The notes under the pieces are model-generated. The model made no database searches, was not told the DNA's origin, and saw only the letters and a program-made list of their open reading frames with translations. Below, in pieces: positions 3,586 to 12,763 of a stretch of DNA of 64,000 nt. The DNA comes from Candidatus Eiseniibacteriota bacterium. GTDB lineage: Bacteria; Eisenbacteria; RBG-16-71-46; CAIMUX01; VGJL01. How positions within the stretch are numbered: the first letter of the stretch is position 1; each line of letters begins with the position of its first letter. Location of the stretch: assembly GCA_041946735.1 (NCBI GenBank), contig JBHGAY010000009.1, positions 1 through 64,000 on the forward strand, written 5' to 3'. Made by a program: the position numbers and the translations under genes.

Positions 3586-4398
3586 ATGCTCGAGCCATTC
3601 GGAGAGAAGCGGGGGCCGGTCGTGTTCGTGAGCGACGCCCACCTGGGAGCGCCCGCTGGGGCCCGGGAGAGGGCGGACTGGTTCGCGGCGTTCCTCCGGT
3701 CGCTGATCGGCAAGATCGGCGGCCTGCTCGTGGTCGGGGACCTCTTCGACTTCTGGTTCGAGTACCGCCGGGCGATACCGAAGGGCCACTTTCAGGTCTG
3801 CCGGGCGCTCGCCGACATCGTGGGGACCGGGGTTCCCGTCCTCTACTTCGGGGGGAATCACGACTTCTGGTCGGGCAGCTACCTGCGAAGCGAGATCGGG
3901 ATGCAGGTGACGGAAAGGCCCCGGTCGCTGCAGATCCAGGGCCGCTCCCTCTTCGTTGCCCATGGCGACGGACTGGGACGGGGCGACCTCGGCTACCGGG
4001 TTCTCAAGCGCGTGCTGCGGAACCCCCTGGCGATCTCCCTCTACCGGGCGATCCATCCCGACCTTGGGATCCCCTTCGCCCACGCCTTCTCCGCCGTCAG
4101 CCGGAAGCACACCCTCCCCCGGGAGGTGCTCGTGCCCAGGCTCATCAGGGATATCGCCCGCCCGCATCTGGAGGAGGGGCACGACGCGGTCGTGATCGGT
4201 CACGTGCACGAGCCGACGCACCTGAGGCTCGCCGAGGGAGAGTTCGTGATTCTCGGAGACTGGCTCGAGAACTTCACCTACCTCGTCATGGAGAACGGAG
4301 CCCTCGAGCTGCGCCGGCACAGGCCGGGGATCGGGGACGTAGCGATCCCATGCGGCAATCCGGCGAATCCCGGAGCGGCTATTGGCGCCGGTAGGTGA
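3586..4398 (+). CDS. lpxH: UDP-2,3-diacylglucosamine diphosphatase (metallophosphoesterase)
   Basis: SDAHLG, GDLFDFWFEY, GNHDFW, HGD and GHVH motifs. Confidence 0.82.
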   Translation: MLEPFGEKRGPVVFVSDAHLGAPAGARERADWFAAFLRSLIGKIGGLLVVGDLFDFWFEYRRAIPKGHFQVCRALADIVGTGVPVLYFGGNHDFWSGSYLRSEIGMQVTERPRSLQIQGRSLFVAHGDGLGRGDLGYRVLKRVLRNPLAISLYRAIHPDLGIPFAHAFSAVSRKHTLPREVLVPRLIRDIARPHLEEGHDAVVIGHVHEPTHLRLAEGEFVILGDWLENFTYLVMENGALELRRHRPGIGDVAIPCGNPANPGAAIGAGR

Positions 4399-5308
4399 TC
4401 CCGATGCGATGCTGCGTCCCCAGGTCGTCGCCGAAGGGGACATACGCATAGTCGGCCTGGACCGAACCCTGATGGAGACCGATACCGAAGCTCACGTCCT
4501 CGCTGTCGAGCCCGCTCCGATAGCCGAGACGAAGCCGGGCGACTTCGCGCAGCCGGTACTCGACGCCGAGCTGCAGGTTCGGGTCCTCCTCCCGCACCTT
4601 GCGGACTTCCGCGGCGAGCAGGGCCGTGGCTCCGATCGACGGGAGCCGCAGGCGGTAGGTTGCGCCTCCCTGGACGGTCATCGGAAGGCTCAGCTGTTGG
4701 TCCACGTAACGGAGGTTCGGGCCGAGATGCAGCAGAGCGAGGCCGAAGTCGAGCCCGGCGAAGACGTCGCGGCCGAGGACGCCCGCGTCGAGGGAGATGC
4801 CGTCGGCGCTGTACGTGTCGAGCTGCTCCCGGACGTAGCTCGCCCCTACGCCGAGACTCCAGGAGTCGCTCATCTGGTATCCCCCCGCCAGACCGGTGGA
4901 GATCCCGTAATAGCCGAACTTGCCCTGATAGATGCCCGCGTTGTCGTAGGAGTCGAGCTGGTCGCTCCACGTCCCATGCAGGGACACTCCGAGGCCGAGG
5001 CGCCCGAAGCTGCGGGTGATCCCGGCGAACTCCTGGCGGATCGACTGGAAGCTCTCGTTGTGCGCGACGGTCGCCTGCAGTCCAGGTTGGAACGCGAGGG
5101 CGGCCGGATTCCAGTACGTGGCCGAGGGCCCTTCGACGTTCGACACGACCGCATTGCCCATCGCGACGGCCTCGGCGCCGGCGCCGATCTTCAGGTAGGC
5201 CATTCCGACGGGAGCGGCGGATGCGGATCCGAGGACGGTGGATCCGAGGACGGCGAGAGATGCGAGCGCGAAGAGAACCGGCGGCAGCCCCAAACGACGA
5301 CGAGCCAT
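4379..5308 (-). CDS. PorV/PorQ family outer-membrane beta-barrel
   Basis: Signal peptide, then YLKIGAGAEAVAMGNA and YWNPAALA (PorV/FadL-type N-terminus), alternating beta strands and a C-terminal DYAY...HRIGITY. Confidence 0.8.
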   Translation of the reverse strand: MARRRLGLPPVLFALASLAVLGSTVLGSASAAPVGMAYLKIGAGAEAVAMGNAVVSNVEGPSATYWNPAALAFQPGLQATVAHNESFQSIRQEFAGITRSFGRLGLGVSLHGTWSDQLDSYDNAGIYQGKFGYYGISTGLAGGYQMSDSWSLGVGASYVREQLDTYSADGISLDAGVLGRDVFAGLDFGLALLHLGPNLRYVDQQLSLPMTVQGGATYRLRLPSIGATALLAAEVRKVREEDPNLQLGVEYRLREVARLRLGYRSGLDSEDVSFGIGLHQGSVQADYAYVPFGDDLGTQHRIGITYRRQ

Positions 5309-5424
5309 GAATCTCCCCTGCGGAATGTGACTCCCCTTCGGGCAGGAAACGCTGCGGCGGGAACCGGACGTCATTGCGGTTGCCCGCAGCAACGTCGTGA
5401 GGATAGGGAACGCCTAGAGGCGGG

Positions 5425-6300
5425 TCAACGTGGCGCTGCCCCGGAGGCTGCGGCCTTGCTGCGGGGCGGCCGCCACGAAGCGAGGGCCGGGCTGGCCTCG
5501 CGCAGCTCCTGATTGCCCGGGTCGATTTGATAGGCCCAATCGAGCACGACCTCCTGCGGTGTCACGCGGACAACGCGGAACTTCGCGTAGTGATCGTCTC
5601 TCGTCCAAGCGACGTACACGTGTCCCTCGATCACCTCGACTTCGGCGCGCGGAGACCAACCGTCCGGTGGCGCCCACGTGACGTCGTCGAACTCCGCGAA
5701 ACCCGCATCCTGGAGCTCCGTCAGGAGGCTCGGATCGTCCGGGTCCTCGAGCCCCAGAATCCAGGCCCCGCCATCGGGATCGTAGAGGTAGGCGATATCG
5801 GCGCGCGGGTCGTCGTATCCCGTCACCATCTCGTGCGAGAAGTCGTAAGCGGAACGAGAAGGATCGTCGTTGTAGTTGCGCAAACGCAGGCCGCGGCCTT
5901 CCGGGCGCGGGGTGTCCTGGACCAGCTCCGGGGAGAGATCACTCTCGTTGCCGTCCCAGTCGAGCGCGCTCACCGCATAGTAGTAGGTCTCGCCATTGGT
6001 CACGTCCTGGTCCACGTACTCGACGGAGCTCGCAGGGACGGAGGCGATCTGAACATACGAGCCGGTCGGATGGTCACCCCTGTAGACGCGGTAGCGATCG
6101 AGGTCCGGCTCCTCGTTGGGGTACCAGAGGATCGTCACCTCTTCGTCCCCCGTGATGCTCGTGACCCCTCGCGGAGCGGCGGGGGGATCGAAGTCCGAGC
6201 ACGGGGACGAAGAATCGTCATCGCATCCGGCGGCGAGGATCGCAAGAACTCCGAAAGCCGCCAGGATGGCGCATCCGTGACGAAAGCGAATGGGTCTCAT
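5425..6300 (-). CDS. lipoprotein with a fibronectin type III-like domain
   Basis: Lipobox ILAAG-C, PAAPRGV...VTILW...YRVYR...NGETYYYAVSALDWDGNESDLS. RBS GAGGAGG upstream. Confidence 0.75.
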   Translation of the reverse strand: MRPIRFRHGCAILAAFGVLAILAAGCDDDSSSPCSDFDPPAAPRGVTSITGDEEVTILWYPNEEPDLDRYRVYRGDHPTGSYVQIASVPASSVEYVDQDVTNGETYYYAVSALDWDGNESDLSPELVQDTPRPEGRGLRLRNYNDDPSRSAYDFSHEMVTGYDDPRADIAYLYDPDGGAWILGLEDPDDPSLLTELQDAGFAEFDDVTWAPPDGWSPRAEVEVIEGHVYVAWTRDDHYAKFRVVRVTPQEVVLDWAYQIDPGNQELREASPALASWRPPRSKAAASGAAPR

Positions 6301-6570: not shown

Positions 6571-6608
6571 ACAGAAAAACAGGTGGGCGGCGCCTGCGCG
6601 CCGCCCAC
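6571..6608 (-). terminator. intrinsic terminator
   Basis: 11-bp perfect stem GTGGGCGGCGC (6583-6593) / GCGCCGCCCAC (6598-6608) with a 4-nt loop, followed on the minus strand by CTGTTTTTCTGT. Confidence 0.75.
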
Positions 6609-6856
6609 GCCTGAGTCCTCGTCCCCACCGGGCTCGGATGATGGCTCGAGAGTCTCGTGTCTCGAAGCCGGGAGAGGGCTCCAGGCGCTACCCCGAGCAG
6701 GAGGGCTCGATGGCGTGGACCGGAATCCTCGAGGGGAGGAGTGCTCTGGGGAACCGGGTCAGTTTCATCCTGGGCTCTTCAGGAGGCTGACCATGAAAAC
6801 CCTGGGCTCTAATGGACGAACCGACCCGGCCCCGAGCTGGAGGTCCCCCCTCCGGC
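6575..6856 (-). ncRNA. putative sigma54-dependent small RNA (~280 nt)
   Basis: Bounded by a -24/-12 promoter (6867-6883) and a terminator. No convincing long ORF. Five exact GAGCCC motifs and several C-rich CCUCC tracts. Confidence 0.5.
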
Positions 6857-6866
6857 AGTGATGCAG

Positions 6867-6883
6867 AGCACCTTCGGTGCCAA
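6867..6883 (-). promoter_or_regulatory. sigma54 (-24/-12) promoter
   Basis: The minus strand reads TTGGCACCGAAGGTGCT (GG-N10-GC, with an intact TGGCAC). It sits directly downstream of a sigma54 activator gene, beyond an AT-richer spacer. Confidence 0.7.
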
Positions 6884-7079
6884 AGTGCCACCAGTAAGCT
6901 CCAGGAAGGAAAAGTAGGCCGAAACCGGGCGAAAAATGCGGCCTCGTGGTGCCACCCAACTTCCCAGAGGGGCTGTCGGGCGCAACCATATCAGGGGACA
7001 ATTGAAAAGAAAGTTGCGAAAGATCTGGCGACAGTGTTCCAAGTCTATGCTATATAAGCAGATGATCCTGACATGGATC

Positions 7080-10000
7080 TTAAGAGGACTTCTTGGATCT
7101 CTTTCGAGTCTCGAGGTCCTCGAGGCCGTAACGACGGATTTTCTCGAGCAGGGCGGGGTAGCTGAGGCGAAGGCGGCGGCTCGCTTCCGACTTGTTGCCT
7201 CCGCAATCGTGAAGCGCGGTACGGATCAGCTCGGTCTCCAGCTGGGCAACGGCTTCCCTCAACGTGTGGGGCTCGCCGGAGCGTTCCTCCAGCCGCCCGA
7301 GGACCTCGGGAGGCAAGAGATCCGGTCCGATCCACTCGCCGTCCTCGCTCAGAACGACGAGGCGACGCACGCACTTCTCCAACTCCCGCACGTTGCCGCG
7401 CCAGTCATGGTCCATGAGGCGTCGCAGGACCTCCCTGGTGACACCCGCCGGCCGGCGATCCATCTCCTGTGTGAAACGCGACTGGAAGCGGCGAACGAGG
7501 ACGGGAATGTCCTCTCGCCGCTCGCGGAGCGGCGGAATGTGGAATTGGAAGTCGTTCAGGCGGTAATAGAGGTCTTCGAGGAAAAGGCCTTCACGGATGG
7601 CGGCCGAAAGGTCGGTGTTCGTCGCGCAGAGGATGCGGACGTTCGCCGTCTTCGAACGGGTCTCTCCGACCGGTCGAAACTCCCTTCGGTCGAGCACGTG
7701 TAGCAACTTCGCCTGGACGTTCCGGTGCGCCCGATCGACCTCGTCCAGGAACAGCGTTCCCCCCTCGGCCTCCTCGATCAGCCCGCGTTTCGTCCGGATC
7801 GCTCCCGTGAAGGCGCCCTGGACGTGACCGAACAGCTCGCTCTCGAGGAGCTGCTCCGGAAGGGCGGCGCAGTTGACCTGCACGAACGGCGCGCTGCGGC
7901 GCCGGCTCGCCTCGTGGATGCAACGGGCGAGAAGTCCCTTGCCCGTGCCTGTCTCCCCCGTGAGGAGAATGTTGGCCTCGCTGTCGGACACCCGCCGCAG
8001 AAGCGTCAGAAGCTGCCTCATGTTCGAGTCGACGGTGAGGAATCCGGAGAAGGCATCTCCCTCCCGCGAAACGGCTTCCTGTTCGGACCGGTCCCTCGCG
8101 TATTGCTCGCGAGCAGCCACGGTGACCGAGATCAAGCTCCCGAACAGGGAAAGCAACCTCAAATCGCGTGAGCCGAAGGCTTCGGCCGATCCCCCGCGCT
8201 CCGCCATCACGATTCCCCACAGGCCTTCGCTCGGCCGCAGGCGAAGCACGACGAACGGTCCCTCCGGACGCCAGCGATCGGCATGCAGAGGATGCAGAAC
8301 GCCGGGAGACGATCGCCCGCCCAGCCAGATCGTCCGGCCGTTCTTCAGGCTCGCTCGCAGCAGCGGATCGAGAGCGCGCAGGGCAGCGGCCGGCCGGTCG
8401 AACCCGATTCCCGCCTCGGCTCGCAGCCGTTCGAGGGAAGGCCCGACGCCGAGCAAAGCCCGATCGACGCGAAGGCGCCCCGCCATCTGCTCGAGCAGTC
8501 GCTGCAGAGCGTCGCGCCCGCCCCCCGGCTGGGTATCGAGCGGGGTGAACTCCTGCAGGATCTGGAACTCCTCGGTGGTTCCGAGCAGGCACTCGGCCTG
8601 ATTCTCCGCGAGTTCCTGCTTCAAGGCCGCCAGGCGGTCCCGGCCGTCGGTCAATCCTTGCGTCTCGAGGAGCGCGAGCCCGCGATCGAGCGAGCGAAGC
8701 GCTCCTTCCAGATCCCCCTCCGCCATCAAGGCGCGCGCGTGGACGTCGACGAACTCGGGTGCGATGCGGACGATGTCGAGCTTCGTCACCACCTCCCAGA
8801 TCGGCTCGAGCATCTCGAGCGCACCGGGGGATGGAGGGACGTCGTGAGGCGCGAGACGCGCACTCTCGAGCAGCAGAGCCGCGTAGCGGATGCGAGAGAG
8901 GGTCTCCTCGTACACATCGGGAGTCGACGCCAGAGCGTCGCACGACCGCTTCAGGAACTTCAGCGCCCTCTCGGGCCGCCCCGATTCCCACGCGGCTTCT
9001 CCGAGCACGCGCAGGGCGGCGCCCCTCTCGCAGTCATTGTGGATGCGGATCGCGATTCTCGCCGCATCGGTCGCCCAGCGGATCGAGGCCACCGCATCGC
9101 CCCGCTGTAGCGCCTCCTCGGCGAGGCGTCGCTGGATCTCACAGACCAGATCGCCCTCGGGGGCGATCGATTCCGCTTGAGTCAAGGCGTCATGGAGGAG
9201 GTTTCTCGCCTCCGCGAGACTGCCATCCTGCACCGCGCTCTCCGCCAGAAACTCCAACGCCAAGACGCTCTCCCGCCGGTAGCCGTGCTTGCGCGCCATG
9301 TCGAGCGCCTGGTGGTAGTGCGAGGCAGCCGATTTCTTCTGGCCCAGACGATGCTTGACGTTCCCGAGGGCGAGGTGCGCGTTCGCGACCGCCGCGGAAT
9401 TGTCGATCTCGCGGAAGGTGAGGAGGGCGCGAGAGAGAGCCTGCAGAGCGCTGGTCCAGTCGCATCGCTTCGTGTAGAGGATCCCCAGGTTGAGGGAATG
9501 AGAAGCGATGCCGGGGAGATTCCCCGCTTCCTCGCTGACCGCGAGCGCACGCTGCATGTAATCGAGCGCTTCACGCCAACGCGGACCCGATTTCAGCAGA
9601 ACGCCGAGATTGTTCAGCGCTCGGGCAATCCCCTCTCGATGGTCGATTCTCCGGAAGGTGAAGAGGGCGCTCTCGTAGAACTCGCGCGCTCGGTCGAACT
9701 GGCCCGTCCGGTACGCGGTGTTTCCGAGCGTCAACTCCAGGAGACCGATCTCCTCGTTGTCGTTTCCCGCCCGGAGGACCTCGTACGCCTTGCCGCACTC
9801 GCTCTCCGCAAGGCGATGCTCCCCCATCAGGTTGTGGACCATCCCCGTCCTGCCGAGGAGCTTGGCCTCGAGATCCCGGTCGATCTCCGGATCGATGGAC
9901 TGGCGAACGCGGTGTAGCTCCGCGAGCGCTTCCCCGTATTCCGCGCGCCTCCGGTGGCACTCCGCGATTCGGAAACGCGCCTCCGCACGCTCCCGTCTCC

Positions 10001-10175
10001 AGGCGGGATCGTTGCCCAGTAGTCCCAGGGCCCGCTCGAACGACTCGATGGCGGATTGCAGGTCGTCGGCGAGCATCTGCATCTCGCCGAGGGCGATCGC
10101 CTGCCCGAACCCGTTTCCGCTACGAGTCTCGTTCCCCACCTGCCGTGGATGGGAGCTAGCGTGATGCGCGTCCAT
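7080..10175 (-). CDS. TPR-repeat sigma54-dependent transcriptional activator (bEBP) with Fis-type HTH
   Basis: Many TPR-like helices (ALNNLGVLL, SLNLGILY, AHLALGNV), a GAF-like region, GETGTGKG, ESELFGHVQGAFTGA, LFLDEV, WRGNVREL and C-terminal GNKSEASRRLRLS. No receiver domain. Confidence 0.92.
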   Translation of the reverse strand: MDAHHASSHPRQVGNETRSGNGFGQAIALGEMQMLADDLQSAIESFERALGLLGNDPAWRRERAEARFRIAECHRRRAEYGEALAELHRVRQSIDPEIDRDLEAKLLGRTGMVHNLMGEHRLAESECGKAYEVLRAGNDNEEIGLLELTLGNTAYRTGQFDRAREFYESALFTFRRIDHREGIARALNNLGVLLKSGPRWREALDYMQRALAVSEEAGNLPGIASHSLNLGILYTKRCDWTSALQALSRALLTFREIDNSAAVANAHLALGNVKHRLGQKKSAASHYHQALDMARKHGYRRESVLALEFLAESAVQDGSLAEARNLLHDALTQAESIAPEGDLVCEIQRRLAEEALQRGDAVASIRWATDAARIAIRIHNDCERGAALRVLGEAAWESGRPERALKFLKRSCDALASTPDVYEETLSRIRYAALLLESARLAPHDVPPSPGALEMLEPIWEVVTKLDIVRIAPEFVDVHARALMAEGDLEGALRSLDRGLALLETQGLTDGRDRLAALKQELAENQAECLLGTTEEFQILQEFTPLDTQPGGGRDALQRLLEQMAGRLRVDRALLGVGPSLERLRAEAGIGFDRPAAALRALDPLLRASLKNGRTIWLGGRSSPGVLHPLHADRWRPEGPFVVLRLRPSEGLWGIVMAERGGSAEAFGSRDLRLLSLFGSLISVTVAAREQYARDRSEQEAVSREGDAFSGFLTVDSNMRQLLTLLRRVSDSEANILLTGETGTGKGLLARCIHEASRRRSAPFVQVNCAALPEQLLESELFGHVQGAFTGAIRTKRGLIEEAEGGTLFLDEVDRAHRNVQAKLLHVLDRREFRPVGETRSKTANVRILCATNTDLSAAIREGLFLEDLYYRLNDFQFHIPPLRERREDIPVLVRRFQSRFTQEMDRRPAGVTREVLRRLMDHDWRGNVRELEKCVRRLVVLSEDGEWIGPDLLPPEVLGRLEERSGEPHTLREAVAQLETELIRTALHDCGGNKSEASRRLRLSYPALLEKIRRYGLEDLETRKRSKKSS

Positions 10176-10187
10176 GCACCTTCCGGG

Positions 10188-10442
10188 TCAGGGCAACAGA
10201 GCTTCGAGGAGATCGCGAATGATCGGCGGCAATTTGTCGACCCAGTCCGGATCCCCGTCTTGATTCTGCTGCCCTCCTCCTCCAGCAAGAGTATCGGGTT
10301 GTCCGGACTTGCAGTTGTCCAAGGGATTCTGCCCTGTGATCGGTTGCCCGGCGTCCGCAGACAGCTCTCCGGCAAGAGCGACGAGCATGGCGACGAGGAT
10401 GAGAATCCGGACAGGCAGGAGGCAAGAGTTTCTGGCCTGCAC
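10188..10442 (-). CDS. small secreted protein/peptide precursor (84 aa)
   Basis: AAGGAG RBS 6 nt before a GTG. Sequence MQARNSCLLPVRILILVAMLVALAGELSADAG...GGGGQQNQDGDPDWVDKLPPIIRDLLEALLP, with a signal-peptide-like N-terminus. The stop is 12 nt before the bEBP start. Confidence 0.65.
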   Translation of the reverse strand: MQARNSCLLPVRILILVAMLVALAGELSADAGQPITGQNPLDNCKSGQPDTLAGGGGQQNQDGDPDWVDKLPPIIRDLLEALLP

Positions 10443-10623
10443 GACGAACTCCTTTTTGGCGCCTGCCCCTGGGCGCTCAGAGCTGCGTGCCGGGGGACCT
10501 CCCACAGCGTCTCGAGGCAGGTTTACTCGCATAAAGTGTCCATCCGAGCCGCCGCTTTCGTCAAGTGGGAACGCTGCTCAGGCCGTTCTGAGACCCCGAT
10601 CGAGATCGTGATAGGGTGGGCGG

Positions 10624-11667
10624 ATGCAAGCTCGCACGACCAACCTTTTCGGTCTCGGACCCGCGGACATCGCCGCCCTGCCCGAGTTCGAGGGCCAGCC
10701 TCGGTTTCGCTCCCAGCAGCTGGCGAGGTGGATGTACGACCGGCTGACAACGAGCTTCGAGTCGATGACCGACCTGTCCCGGCAGCTCCGAAGCATGCTG
10801 GAGGCGCGATACAGGGTCGAGCGGCTGGCCGCGACGAAGGCGACGGTCGCCGCGGATGACGGGGCGACGAAGTTCCTCTTCCCGCTCGAAGGCAGTCTCG
10901 CCGTCGAGGCGGTCTGGATCCGCGACGGCAGGCGCGACACCTTCTGCGTCTCCTCCCAGGCCGGCTGCGCCTACGCCTGCTCGTTCTGCGCGACCGCCTC
11001 GATGAAGGCTGGGCGGAACCTGACGACCGGCGAGATCCTGAGCCAGGTCGCCTGGCTGCGGGAGGCCCTGGCCGAGCGCGGTCCGATCCCCGTGCACAAC
11101 ATCGTGTTCATGGGGATGGGCGAGCCACTGGCCAACTACGACGCCGTTGCCGGCGCCATCCGGATCCTGACCGGTTCTCCCGGCTACGGTGTCGCCGCCC
11201 GGCGGATCACGGTCTCCACCGTGGGACTCGAACCGGAAATCCGCAGGCTGGCGGAGGAGCCGGCCGGGGTGCGGCTTGCGTTCAGCCTGAACGCAACGAC
11301 CGACGAGGTCCGCTCGGAGATCATGCCTGTCAACCGGAAGTATCCGTTCCGGAAGGTCTTCGACGCGCTCCGGCTCTATCAGGACCGCAAGGGGATGCCG
11401 GTGACGTTGGAGTACGTCCTGCTGAGGGGAGTGAACGACTCGGCTGATGATGCGCGTAGGCTTGCGGGATTCGCTCGATCGCTCCAGTGCAAGGTCAACC
11501 TGATCGGCTTCAACCCTCATCCGTTCTCCTCCCACCAGCCGGTCGGCAGGGAGCGGACCGAGCTTTTCCGTAGCTGGATGCTGCCGATCGCCTCGACCGT
11601 GACCGTCCGGTGGAGCAAGGGGCGGGAAATCGAGGCGGCGTGCGGTCAGCTTGCCTCCTCCCGATGA
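10624..11667 (+). CDS. rlmN: 23S rRNA (adenine(2503)-C2)-methyltransferase, radical SAM
   Basis: CVSSQAGCAYACSFCAT, FMGMGEPL, ITVSTVG and AACGQL. Confidence 0.95.
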   Translation: MQARTTNLFGLGPADIAALPEFEGQPRFRSQQLARWMYDRLTTSFESMTDLSRQLRSMLEARYRVERLAATKATVAADDGATKFLFPLEGSLAVEAVWIRDGRRDTFCVSSQAGCAYACSFCATASMKAGRNLTTGEILSQVAWLREALAERGPIPVHNIVFMGMGEPLANYDAVAGAIRILTGSPGYGVAARRITVSTVGLEPEIRRLAEEPAGVRLAFSLNATTDEVRSEIMPVNRKYPFRKVFDALRLYQDRKGMPVTLEYVLLRGVNDSADDARRLAGFARSLQCKVNLIGFNPHPFSSHQPVGRERTELFRSWMLPIASTVTVRWSKGREIEAACGQLASSR

Positions 11668-11674
11668 GGGCGGG

Positions 11675-12763
11675 TCAGCGAAGGATTCGGACCGGCAGTG
11701 CGCGGCCACGCGCCCCTTCGATCGAGGCGAAGTAGACGCCCGAGGCGAGCTGCTGGCCTGTCCCGCTCCGTCCATCCCAGAGCAGCTCGTAATGCCCCGC
11801 CCCGGTCGCCGTCCATCCCGTGAGGATCCGCACGAGGCGCCCGGAGGCGTCATGGAGCCGGACGACGGGGCTCGTATCCCCTGCGTCCAGAATGAGGGAG
11901 AGCCTTCGCCCGGACGGCAGCGGGTTTGGATAGAGCTTCGCGCGAAGGCCGGCATCCGAAAGGAGGGCCGGGTCGGGCAGCAGGCCGAGGAAGAATGCCT
12001 GAAGACCCGGGACTTCGTCCGGTTCGGGAAGATCCAGGTTCTCGATCGCTCCCGCGTTCCGAGCGAGCTCGCCTCCAAAGAACCAGCGGAAGTCCTCGGC
12101 GAAGATCTCGTGCGGGCGGTCACGGTGCACCGCTCCCGCGTGGAACCGGTTCTCGTCCTCGATCCCCCTCACGGTGCGATACTCGTCCCACCCCTGCAAA
12201 TCGCTGTCGGGGATCAGGATGGCATGGACCAGATGACCGACCTCGTGGGCCACGAGGAAGGAGACCTGACGGGGATCCAAGGCGAGGACCGTGGGAGAGA
12301 GGTAGAGAATCCCGTCGCTCGCCCAGGATCCGAGGGGCTCCGCGACCGGGTACGGCAGGATCCAGATGTCGAAGCGAAGGTCGTGCAGGAAGGCGGGGTC
12401 GATCTGCTCAAGGGCTTCCCTCACCTGGTCGGGCGTGACGCAGTGAAAGCGACCGTCGCCCCGGTTCTGGATTCGGTCGTCATCCACCGAGGTGACGAAG
12501 GGACGGCGCGAGCCGTCGCCATCCCGGAGGTAGAGAAGTCCGTCGGAACCAGTAAAGCTTTGCTGCCCAAGGACATCTGCTGGAGTGAGGATGCGGATGT
12601 TCGCCATCTGCCCGGCATGCGTCGCGGCGGGCTGGAGGAACGGCAGGATCAAGGCGAGGGACAGGACGGTGAGTACTGTGATGAGCGAGTGGCGGGTCGA
12701 GTCGTCGGAACGGTTTGCCAAGGGAACCTCCCCGGGGGCACCTTGCGTGCCAACCTGTCTCAT
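11675..12763 (-). CDS. secreted putative zinc metalloprotease with a C-terminal FlgD-Ig/T9SS-like sorting domain
   Basis: Signal-like hydrophobic stretch, AHEVGH plus a downstream EIFAEDF, and C-terminal YPNP...DASGRLVR...WDGR...ASGVYF. Start uncertain. Confidence 0.7.
   Translation of the reverse strand: MRQVGTQGAPGEVPLANRSDDSTRHSLITVLTVLSLALILPFLQPAATHAGQMANIRILTPADVLGQQSFTGSDGLLYLRDGDGSRRPFVTSVDDDRIQNRGDGRFHCVTPDQVREALEQIDPAFLHDLRFDIWILPYPVAEPLGSWASDGILYLSPTVLALDPRQVSFLVAHEVGHLVHAILIPDSDLQGWDEYRTVRGIEDENRFHAGAVHRDRPHEIFAEDFRWFFGGELARNAGAIENLDLPEPDEVPGLQAFFLGLLPDPALLSDAGLRAKLYPNPLPSGRRLSLILDAGDTSPVVRLHDASGRLVRILTGWTATGAGHYELLWDGRSGTGQQLASGVYFASIEGARGRALPVRILR

Follow-up and report, generated by a model that had tools for sequence, protein, structure and literature searches.

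A 64,000-nt stretch of DNA from a Candidatus Eiseniibacteriota genome (contig JBHGAY010000009.1 of assembly GCA_041946735.1), referred to here as the window, contains on its minus strand a regulatory cassette of ~3.9 kb with a modular architecture: the gene for a small, probably exported protein, the gene for an activator with TPR (tetratricopeptide repeat), GAF, AAA+, and helix-turn-helix (HTH) domains, a sigma-54 promoter, and a stretch that is predicted to be transcribed into a structured RNA. The anatomy of the cassette and the structure of the RNA are conserved across the uncultured soil phylum Candidatus Eisenbacteria, in which the RNA element occurs as a rule once per genome. The best explanation of this arrangement, to which we give an even chance, is a self-contained regulatory cassette composed of a small protein that is the cognate signal, a TPR-GAF activator, and a sigma-54-dependent RNA. 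The step from the activator through sigma-54 to the RNA probably holds, and the chance that TPR array and small protein are cognate partners is slightly less than even. An initial annotation of the window had described an 84-aa open reading frame (ORF), a 12-nt gap, a 1031-aa activator, a promoter, and a terminator-bounded unit of ~280 nt, and all of these parts were found where it had placed them. In the literature, with subscription-only papers outside the scope of the search, no description of this module was found for Eisenbacteria, for TPR-containing enhancer-binding proteins, or for Gram-negative RRNPP systems.

In the proposed mechanism, one operon would give rise to both a Sec-exported small protein and a cytoplasmic enhancer-binding protein of the TPR-GAF-AAA+-HTH type. 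The activator would bind the ~200-nt spacer behind its own gene and, together with sigma-54 RNA polymerase, would produce a structured non-coding RNA of ~280 nt, extending from a hairpin with a G-rich loop to a terminator. The TPR array would recognize an acidic G-[DE]-P core in the small protein, with or without the C-terminal tail, either after processing and re-import, as in RRNPP systems, or before export, as a partner that is released by secretion. The GAF domain would then gate the ATPase. In the family of the window, the RNA hairpin may also pair with the 5′ untranslated region (UTR) of the peptide-activator mRNA, resulting in feedback.

Conservation across Candidatus Eisenbacteria

Relatives were searched for with the first 700 residues of the activator, and full-length matches were obtained in the same family, order, and class; a few short contigs with other labels among them are probably binning errors. 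For the first set, 32 loci were fetched from 29 genomes, and one (L043) was dropped as it has no full-length ORF with the GAFTGA motif, leaving the window and 31 further loci. A second set of 20 loci, from families f10, f13, and f15–f18, was fetched by the RNA hairpin alone. The activator orthologues of the family, order, and class are 1002–1108 aa long. At each of the 20 loci chosen by hairpin, a GAFTGA protein of 1027–1071 aa ends 228–366 nt upstream of the hairpin, and the promoter is present.

Conservation of the small ORF beside homologous activators had been set beforehand as a refuting test. The ORF is found at 30 of the 32 loci of the first set and, in the six other families of the second set, at 18 of the 19 evaluable loci: the core motif of its product is exact in 15 and degenerate in 3, one locus has none, and one more has no upstream sequence. 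In the first set, the small ORF ends 6–154 nt before the activator, apart from one locus at which it overlaps the activator start by 14 nt; gaps of 6–30 nt are seen in most loci of the order. Behind the activator, a sigma-54 promoter followed by the conserved transcript is present at 28 of the 32 loci and at 20 of the 20 loci chosen by hairpin, in agreement with the initial annotation; this was taken as the outcome of its second refuting test, on the promoter, and both tests were passed. Four loci are without the hairpin: three are second copies of the activator (L027, L032, and L045), and in the fourth (L046) the contig ends 77 nt after the gene. The 28 loci and the 20 loci of the second set together constitute the 48 hairpin loci referred to below. 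Because the small ORF and the promoter with its transcript are both conserved, the output half of the cassette, from enhancer-binding protein to sigma-54 to RNA, is well supported.

Of 206 genomes of the phylum, 174 contain the hairpin pattern, GGAGGGGGG-N(0–2)-ACCTCC, as do 106 of the 121 good-quality ones, nearly always in exactly one copy; the reversed control pattern is almost absent from the 206 genomes. This tally takes in one unpublished genome (G072), on which nothing rests.

Two lineages have unusual arrangements. Three genomes of genus g8 (G022, G007, and G020) each contain two copies of the activator, represented by L027, L032, and L045 on the one side and by L029, L031, and L033 on the other. 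The two loci of the first set that are missing the small ORF, L029 and L031, are second copies in this genus. In family f10 (L050, L145, L146, and L147), the promoter, the 5′ hairpin, and the helix that follows it, P2, run straight into the gene for a WHD-AAA ATPase of ~490 aa.

The Promoter and the Spacer

The promoter, TTGGCACCGAAGGTGCT, is the single match to TGGCAY-N6-TGCW in the 64-kb window, where 0.14 matches are expected and at least one match occurs in 11 of 100 shuffles. Across the 28 loci and the 20 further loci, without exception, a TGGCA[CT]-N5/6-(T)GC element is positioned with its GC 14–17 nt before the hairpin; the transcript is therefore expected to start 2–4 nt before the hairpin. 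The distance from the activator stop codon to the −24 element is 185–362 nt at all 48 hairpin loci. In an alignment of four spacers from the family of the window, conservation sets in at the promoter and is not seen before it. Seven nt ahead of the −24 element there is another, overlapping TGGCAC (CTGGTGGCACTTTGGCACC, 6877–6893 on the minus strand), which three aligned family relatives do not have.

An AT-rich palindrome, CTTTATAAAG, is found ~205 nt upstream of the −24 element in family f3 only and is a candidate enhancer or other site. With at most two mismatches it occurs at 15 of the 48 loci, the window not being one of them. In L026, L029–L034, L040, and L044 (f3), it is seen with zero or one mismatch just after the activator stop codon.

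The Structured RNA

The RNA is predicted to be a discrete transcript with its own promoter, structure, and terminator. In the window it comprises a 5′ hairpin, GGAGG-GGGGA-CCUCC (6839–6853), the helix P2 (about 6744–6834), a 3′ domain, and a terminator (6583–6608), in which an 11-bp stem with 10 G–C pairs is followed by a T-run. The minimum free energy of the region 6575–6856 is −146.5 kcal/mol (z = −4.07), and none of 200 shuffles folds as well. The hairpin, of the form GGAGG-G(4–7)A-CCTCC and 15–17 nt in length, occurs once per locus and on the same strand at 28 of the 32 loci of the first set; at all 48 hairpin loci it lies 213–391 nt after the activator stop codon, behind a −24/−12 promoter. 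Every RNA has this 5′ hairpin followed by the long irregular helix P2, the sequence of which is wholly different between families.

To assess covariation, ten sequences of families f1 and f2 were aligned with MAFFT, and the alignment was analyzed with RNAalifold. The resulting P2 contains 20 pairs, of which 8 show compensatory changes. Pairing is observed in 95% of the P2 cells, compared with 33–54% when the 3′ partner is slid by 1–3 columns, and the covariation score is 0.433, compared with at most 0.147 when slid; none of 500 shuffles reaches the observed value. The 5′ hairpin is invariant at all five of its pairs and is therefore uninformative on structure. A covariance model, R1, built from the same alignment gives one match in the window (6742–6855) and weaker matches in most loci; because many distant matches aligned at the 5′ hairpin only, pairs were not counted on the R1 alignment.

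No Rfam family, Qrr included, was matched in the window at E values up to 1, and none was matched at gathering scores in ten other loci. Identity with 6S RNA was rejected, as a true 6S RNA is encoded on contig C25 of the same genome. The RNA of the window includes a 26-aa ORF that family members do not share. Near the 3′ end, a second hairpin, ACAU-UGGGGG-AUGU, is conserved in many families, that of the window excepted, and the RNA forms of f17 and f18 are longer than the others.

The Activator

The C-terminal part of the activator adopts the typical arrangement of a sigma-54 activator. Pfam matches are obtained for Sigma54_activat (PF00158, residues 716–877, E 6.7e-64), for AAA_lid_14, and for HTH_8 (residues 976–1016, E 9.8e-9), and the GAFTGA, GETGTGKG (Walker A), and LFLDEV motifs are visible in the translation. 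The genome contains one RpoN gene (Sigma54_DBD, E 7.1e-61). By its AAA+ domain with GAFTGA, its Fis-type HTH, and the RpoN of the genome, the protein is classified as a bacterial enhancer-binding protein. Among the NCBIfam models, the best alignment is to NifA (residues 635–947; 309 bits, compared with a cut-off of 528.85), LuxO scores 244.6 bits against a cut-off of 800, and no equivalog cut-off is reached.

The initial annotation had described the input of this protein as a TPR array with no receiver domain. A Pfam search of the 1031-aa protein agrees that there is no receiver, and the TPR array is present; the input is not made of TPRs only, since a GAF domain had been overlooked. In Pfam this region falls below the cut-offs (E ~1e-3, over the full profile length). 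Compared with known structures, a 24-sequence profile of residues 514–698 finds the GAF domain of NifA (8jrc, E 1.8e-6) and that of Nlh2 (4g3v, E 3.6e-5), which assigns the region directly N-terminal of the AAA+ domain to the NifA/Nlh2 type of GAF domain. The solved sequences nearest to the TPR array come from kinesin light chain (KLC) and LGN/Pins, the TPRs of which bind short linear peptides, with E values of about 1e-20 to 1e-22. NprR is matched only at E 1.3e-7, and the search of the array against solved sequences found no specific homology to RRNPP receptors.

The Small, Probably Exported Protein

The small ORF of the window starts with a GTG at 10442, 6 nt downstream of an AAGGAG ribosome-binding site, and has its stop codon at 10188–10190. 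Its product contains a basic stretch, a hydrophobic region, the sequence DGDPDWVD, and a tail. The 30 orthologues of the first set share this layout. Each has a strong ribosome-binding site and an N terminus that is basic at first and hydrophobic thereafter; a variable linker of Gly, Pro, Asp, and Ser leads to the core, [DE]-G-[DE]-P-x, and the partly hydrophobic tail has a median of 24.5 residues. In all 30, a basic n-region precedes an h-region with a mean Kyte-Doolittle hydropathy of at least 2.3, which makes the protein a candidate for export by the Sec pathway. Across an alignment of 24 of the small proteins, the start Met, G63, and P65 are the sole invariant positions, and D64 is retained in at least 90%. 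The protein has no match in Pfam or NCBIfam. In families f17 and f18 (L136–L175), a GEPD core, a Pro-rich stretch of 20–35 residues, and an amphipathic tail, rich in Trp and basic at its end, follow one another. As core and tail are 20–35 residues apart in these families, they are separable elements.

The C terminus of the small protein, with its short conserved motif ahead of a hydrophobic segment, has a layout similar to that of PEP-CTERM or LPXTG sorting signals. Such signals mark many proteins per genome, and the tails observed here contain charged residues and, in many orthologues, are too polar to span a membrane. When the 4.9-Mb genome was scanned in full for ORFs of the small-protein pattern, 11 raw matches were obtained, and 3 passed the filters; two of these are a wrong-frame ORF and a dehydrogenase fragment. 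With a single real ORF of the pattern, a sorting signal shared by multiple proteins is ruled out, and the sorting-signal interpretation as a whole is close to refuted.

Evidence for and against the Proposed Circuit

The relative rates of change within genera g53 and g65 fit a signal and a receptor that both change fast. Mean identities in the two genera are 0.71 and 0.79 for the TPR array, 0.87 and 0.91 for the AAA+ domain, and 0.91 and 0.93 for the GAF domain, such that the TPR array is the fastest-changing and the GAF domain the most conserved part of the activator. The mature peptide (0.32 and 0.43) changes fastest overall, the signal peptide having identities of 0.50 and 0.55. The initial annotation had proposed a test for co-variation of peptide and TPR array. 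In g65, a partial Mantel test of peptide against TPR array, given the rest of the protein, yields r = 0.59 (p = 0.0008). In g53, the correlation with the TPR array (r = 0.24, p = 0.03) is equaled or exceeded by that with the rest of the protein (r = 0.39, p = 0.001). The genome contains genes for peptide importers, 2 of the OppA type and about 5 of the OPT type, the presence of which is not evidence of use. A complex prediction with activator residues 1–691 and peptide residues 31–84, from alignments of 24 rows, scored 0.01 relative to a mark of 0.32 and is evidence neither way.

Pairing of the RNA with the operon mRNA was measured as the longest exact complement, with coding regions as controls. 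In the window, the loop and 3′ arm of the hairpin (6839–6849) are exactly complementary over 11 nt to GGAGGTCCCCC at 10492–10502, 60 nt ahead of the start of the peptide ORF, and the extended match between hairpin and 5′ UTR spans 20 nt with 80% complementarity. A complementary site 60–82 nt upstream of the peptide start is seen in the window, L022 (15 nt), L023 (11 nt), L024 (10 nt), and G002. All five genomes of the window family with data contain the 5′ UTR site, the surrounding region being otherwise poorly conserved. A CTTGAC box upstream of the operon is retained in all three alignable family members. Feedback by the RNA on the operon mRNA is plausible in the family of the window and unproven in general. 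Isolated complementary matches at other places are seen in L038–L041, L049, and L145.

Several observations weigh against the proposed circuit. Co-variation of peptide and TPR array is inconsistent between the two genera. The GAF domain could be the sensor and is the obvious alternative to the TPR array. In a re-import model, mature fragments of 15–50 residues would have to cross the outer membrane twice. Of the g8 copies that bear the RNA, L029 and L031 (two of the three genomes) have no intact small ORF; the other copies, L027, L032, and L045, have a small ORF with the core and neither hairpin nor promoter downstream. In f10, there is neither a free-standing RNA nor an Fn3-like lipoprotein, and the element has the form of a leader. 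Neither k-mer counts nor the spacer alignment recovered an enhancer motif in the window family, for which reason the activator is linked to the promoter by position and conservation alone. Over the 48 loci, the mean longest complement between hairpin and operon mRNA is 9.46 nt, compared with 8.79 nt in the controls, which is no general excess, and it is longer than the control maximum at only 7 loci. Finally, the cassette is known here from its sequence alone. The most far-reaching version of the proposal is graded as quite unlikely. In it, a whole diderm phylum would use peptide signaling that is encoded in its genes: a Sec-exported pro-protein, with the invariant G-[DE]-P as its recognition or processing core and a tail that diversifies rapidly, would be sensed in the cytoplasm by the TPR-GAF sigma-54 activator, and the dedicated output, a large, structured, Hfq-independent RNA, would feed back on the signal-receptor mRNA.

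One sub-case of the best explanation is strict RRNPP-like quorum sensing, in which the small protein would be exported and cut near G-[DE]-P, and its C-terminal fragment would leave the cell, build up outside, be re-imported by Opp or OPT transporters, and switch the activator by binding the TPR array. Part of PMC10075063 gives as RRNPP criteria a propeptide of 10–100 aa, Sec secretion, a receptor of ~250–500 aa with TPRs, and neighboring genes. By inspection, four of the five criteria of that source, as far as this part goes, apply to the cassette (small propeptide, Sec-type N terminus, TPR receptor, and adjacent genes), and, similar to the RRNPP systems of Bacillota that it describes, a small Sec-type propeptide gene adjoins the gene of a cytoplasmic TPR transcription factor. 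In addition, the core stays fixed within genera as the rest of the mature region diverges very fast, similar to pherotypes, and importers are present. The differences are considerable. The receptor has 1031 instead of 250–500 residues, includes GAF and AAA+ domains, and has a sigma-54 output; its TPRs are of the KLC/LGN type rather than close to NprR; and the organism has two membranes. The small proteins of the 30 orthologues are 83–126 aa long, 14 of them exceeding 100 aa (the 84 aa of the window lie within the RRNPP range), and the separation of core and tail in f17/f18, together with the inconsistent co-variation, also argues against cleavage and re-import in this strict form, which is held to be improbable. 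Of the hybrid circuit of the initial annotation, the sigma-54/RNA output is supported by conservation, and the RRNPP-like input stays a hypothesis.

The small protein may instead not be a ligand of the activator at all, the GAF domain or other contacts of the TPRs being the sensor and the small protein being co-expressed, for example as an envelope factor or a regulon product. The conservation of the GAF domain above all other parts of the activator is in line with this, as is the fact that the nearest relatives are GAF-containing enhancer-binding proteins such as NifA and Nlh2; the g8 paralogues show in addition that peptide and RNA are separable. Against these stand the phylum-wide pairing of the two genes with short gaps, the occurrence of the peptide nowhere else in the genome, and the combination of an invariant acidic core with TPRs of a peptide-binding type. 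We regard a non-ligand role as less likely than not.

The RNA could also be, in the main, a cis-acting leader for the downstream Fn3-like lipoprotein (and the PorV/PorQ-family protein), with the terminator as an attenuator. A homologue of the lipoprotein is found behind the RNA at 42 of the 48 loci. The f10 arrangement, with promoter, hairpin, and P2 directly before a coding gene, shows that the element can serve as a 5′ leader and keeps a partly cis-acting RNA alive as an interpretation. Furthermore, a terminator-like hairpin closes the unit at just 18 of the 48 loci if at least five T's are required in the tail. By a lax rule, long G+C-rich terminal stems recur at 34 of 48; the gap between RNA and lipoprotein, ~150 to 600 nt, is not conserved; and the unit of the window is closed by its 11-bp stem and T-run 275 nt before the lipoprotein start. 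Taken together, a mainly cis-acting leader is unlikely.

Known CsrA sponges, such as CsrB and RsmZ, carry many binding sites, and the G-rich loops ending in GGA could in principle titrate CsrA. Both conserved hairpins have GGA at the 3′ edge of the loop, CsrA is encoded in this genome and in 110 of 125 good-quality genomes of the phylum, and Hfq was not found in the genome, which is 94.78% complete. Only two candidate sites exist in all, and the family of the window is without the second hairpin. Co-occurrence does not support the idea either: in f10 the hairpin is present in 8 of 8 genomes and CsrA in 0 of 6. Part of PMC13443453 moreover predicts few functional CsrAs in Eisenbacteria. A role as a CsrA sponge is very unlikely.

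Comparison with Known Systems

The closest known architecture is that of PxrR (Nla19)-Pxr in Myxococcus xanthus, followed by LuxO-Qrr. As outlined in part of PMC5684412, the PxrR gene is followed by a ~260-bp spacer with a predicted enhancer and sigma-54 promoter and by a small RNA; as in the cassette, a sigma-54 activator gene stands immediately before a non-coding RNA that is built of stem-loops. According to that source, PxrR belongs to the response regulators with a receiver domain and is partnered by a kinase, whereas the activator described here has TPR and GAF domains and a co-transcribed small protein. The RNA of Eisenbacteria is also unrelated, no Rfam family being matched, and is larger.

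Qrr RNAs are short and Hfq-dependent, and Qrr feeds back on the mRNA of its own activator. LuxO itself is a phosphorelay receiver protein, unlike the activator of the cassette, in which there is no receiver; no Hfq was found, and the RNA has ~280 nt or more. In Vibrio, according to part of PMC10162802, the sigma-54 activator LuxO acts in cell-cell signaling and drives a regulatory RNA that is encoded beside its gene, an adjoining arrangement that the cassette shares. The analogy with Qrr that the initial annotation drew was not upheld for the RNA: the RNA is long and structured, Hfq was not found, and in f10 the promoter and 5′ element enter a coding gene directly.

The core of GAF domain, Sigma54_activat, and HTH_8 is common to the activator and to the GAF-AAA+-HTH enhancer-binding proteins NifA, Aquifex Nlh2, NorR, and FhlA. 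The main differences are that the activator of Eisenbacteria has an additional N-terminal TPR array of ~500 residues and that its predicted target is an RNA. In secretion-coupled switches, namely FlgM-sigma28 and the TPR chaperones IpgC/SicA with MxiE/InvF, an exported protein holds a regulator and export sets transcription. The likeness to these is in logic only, as they use type III export and sigma-70-type activators. What is new here is an input of TPR and GAF domains, a small, probably exported protein as an obligatory component, and a family of RNAs that is absent from Rfam.

The secure part alone constitutes a new phylum-wide family of structured regulatory RNAs with a dedicated sigma-54 activator, in a lineage without a cultured member, and provides a defined handle on regulation there: one promoter, one activator, and one RNA. 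If the peptide is indeed the ligand, the range of RRNPP-type sensing would come to include bacteria with two membranes, in which peptide signaling of this kind is not known, as well as outputs by sigma-54 and RNA. At ~3.9 kb, the cassette is compact enough to suit testing in a heterologous sigma-54 host.

Feature Coordinates and Neighboring Genes

Table 1. Positions of the cassette and its downstream neighbors in the window
Feature	Position	Strand	Basis or remark
Upstream region and 5′ UTR of the peptide-activator operon	10443..10560	−	GGAGGTCCCCC at 10492–10502; putative promoter assignment
Small exported protein (predicted), 84 aa	10188..10442	−	signal-peptide-like N terminus, Gly/Pro/Asp linker, DGDPDW core, 18-aa amphipathic tail
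Intergenic gap, small ORF to activator	10176–10187	−	12 nt
Activator, 1031 aa	7080–10175	−	ORF translation and Pfam
TPR array of activator, residues ~36–509	8649..10070	−	Pfam TPR_12 E 9.4e-34 and other TPR families
GAF domain of activator, residues ~514–698	8082..8636	−	profile matches to NifA and Nlh2 GAF
AAA+ with GAFTGA, AAA lid, HTH_8, stop codon	7080..8030	−	Pfam and translation
Spacer, activator stop to promoter, 196 nt	6884..7079	−	weak terminator-like hairpin at 6938–6955; expected place of enhancer sites
Sigma-54 (−24/−12) promoter TTGGCACCGAAGGTGCT	6867..6883	−	pattern match and conserved equivalents
Structured RNA, ~282 nt	6575..6856	−	5′ hairpin, P2, 3′ domain, intrinsic terminator; both ends predicted
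Fn3-like lipoprotein	5425..6300	−	weak Fn3-type match; conserved downstream neighbor
PorV/PorQ-family outer-membrane protein	4379..5392	−	NCBIfam PorV_fam, 121.7 bits (cut-off 90)

The Fn3-like lipoprotein of the window has no Pfam match and may be a second output of the sigma-54 promoter. A PorV/PorQ homologue was found at 15 of the 48 loci, most of the fetched flanks being too short to show it. The upstream neighbors of the operon, at 11675–12763 (minus strand) and 10624–11667 (plus strand), are RlmN, which is divergent, and a protein whose C terminus is a FlgD Ig-like domain.

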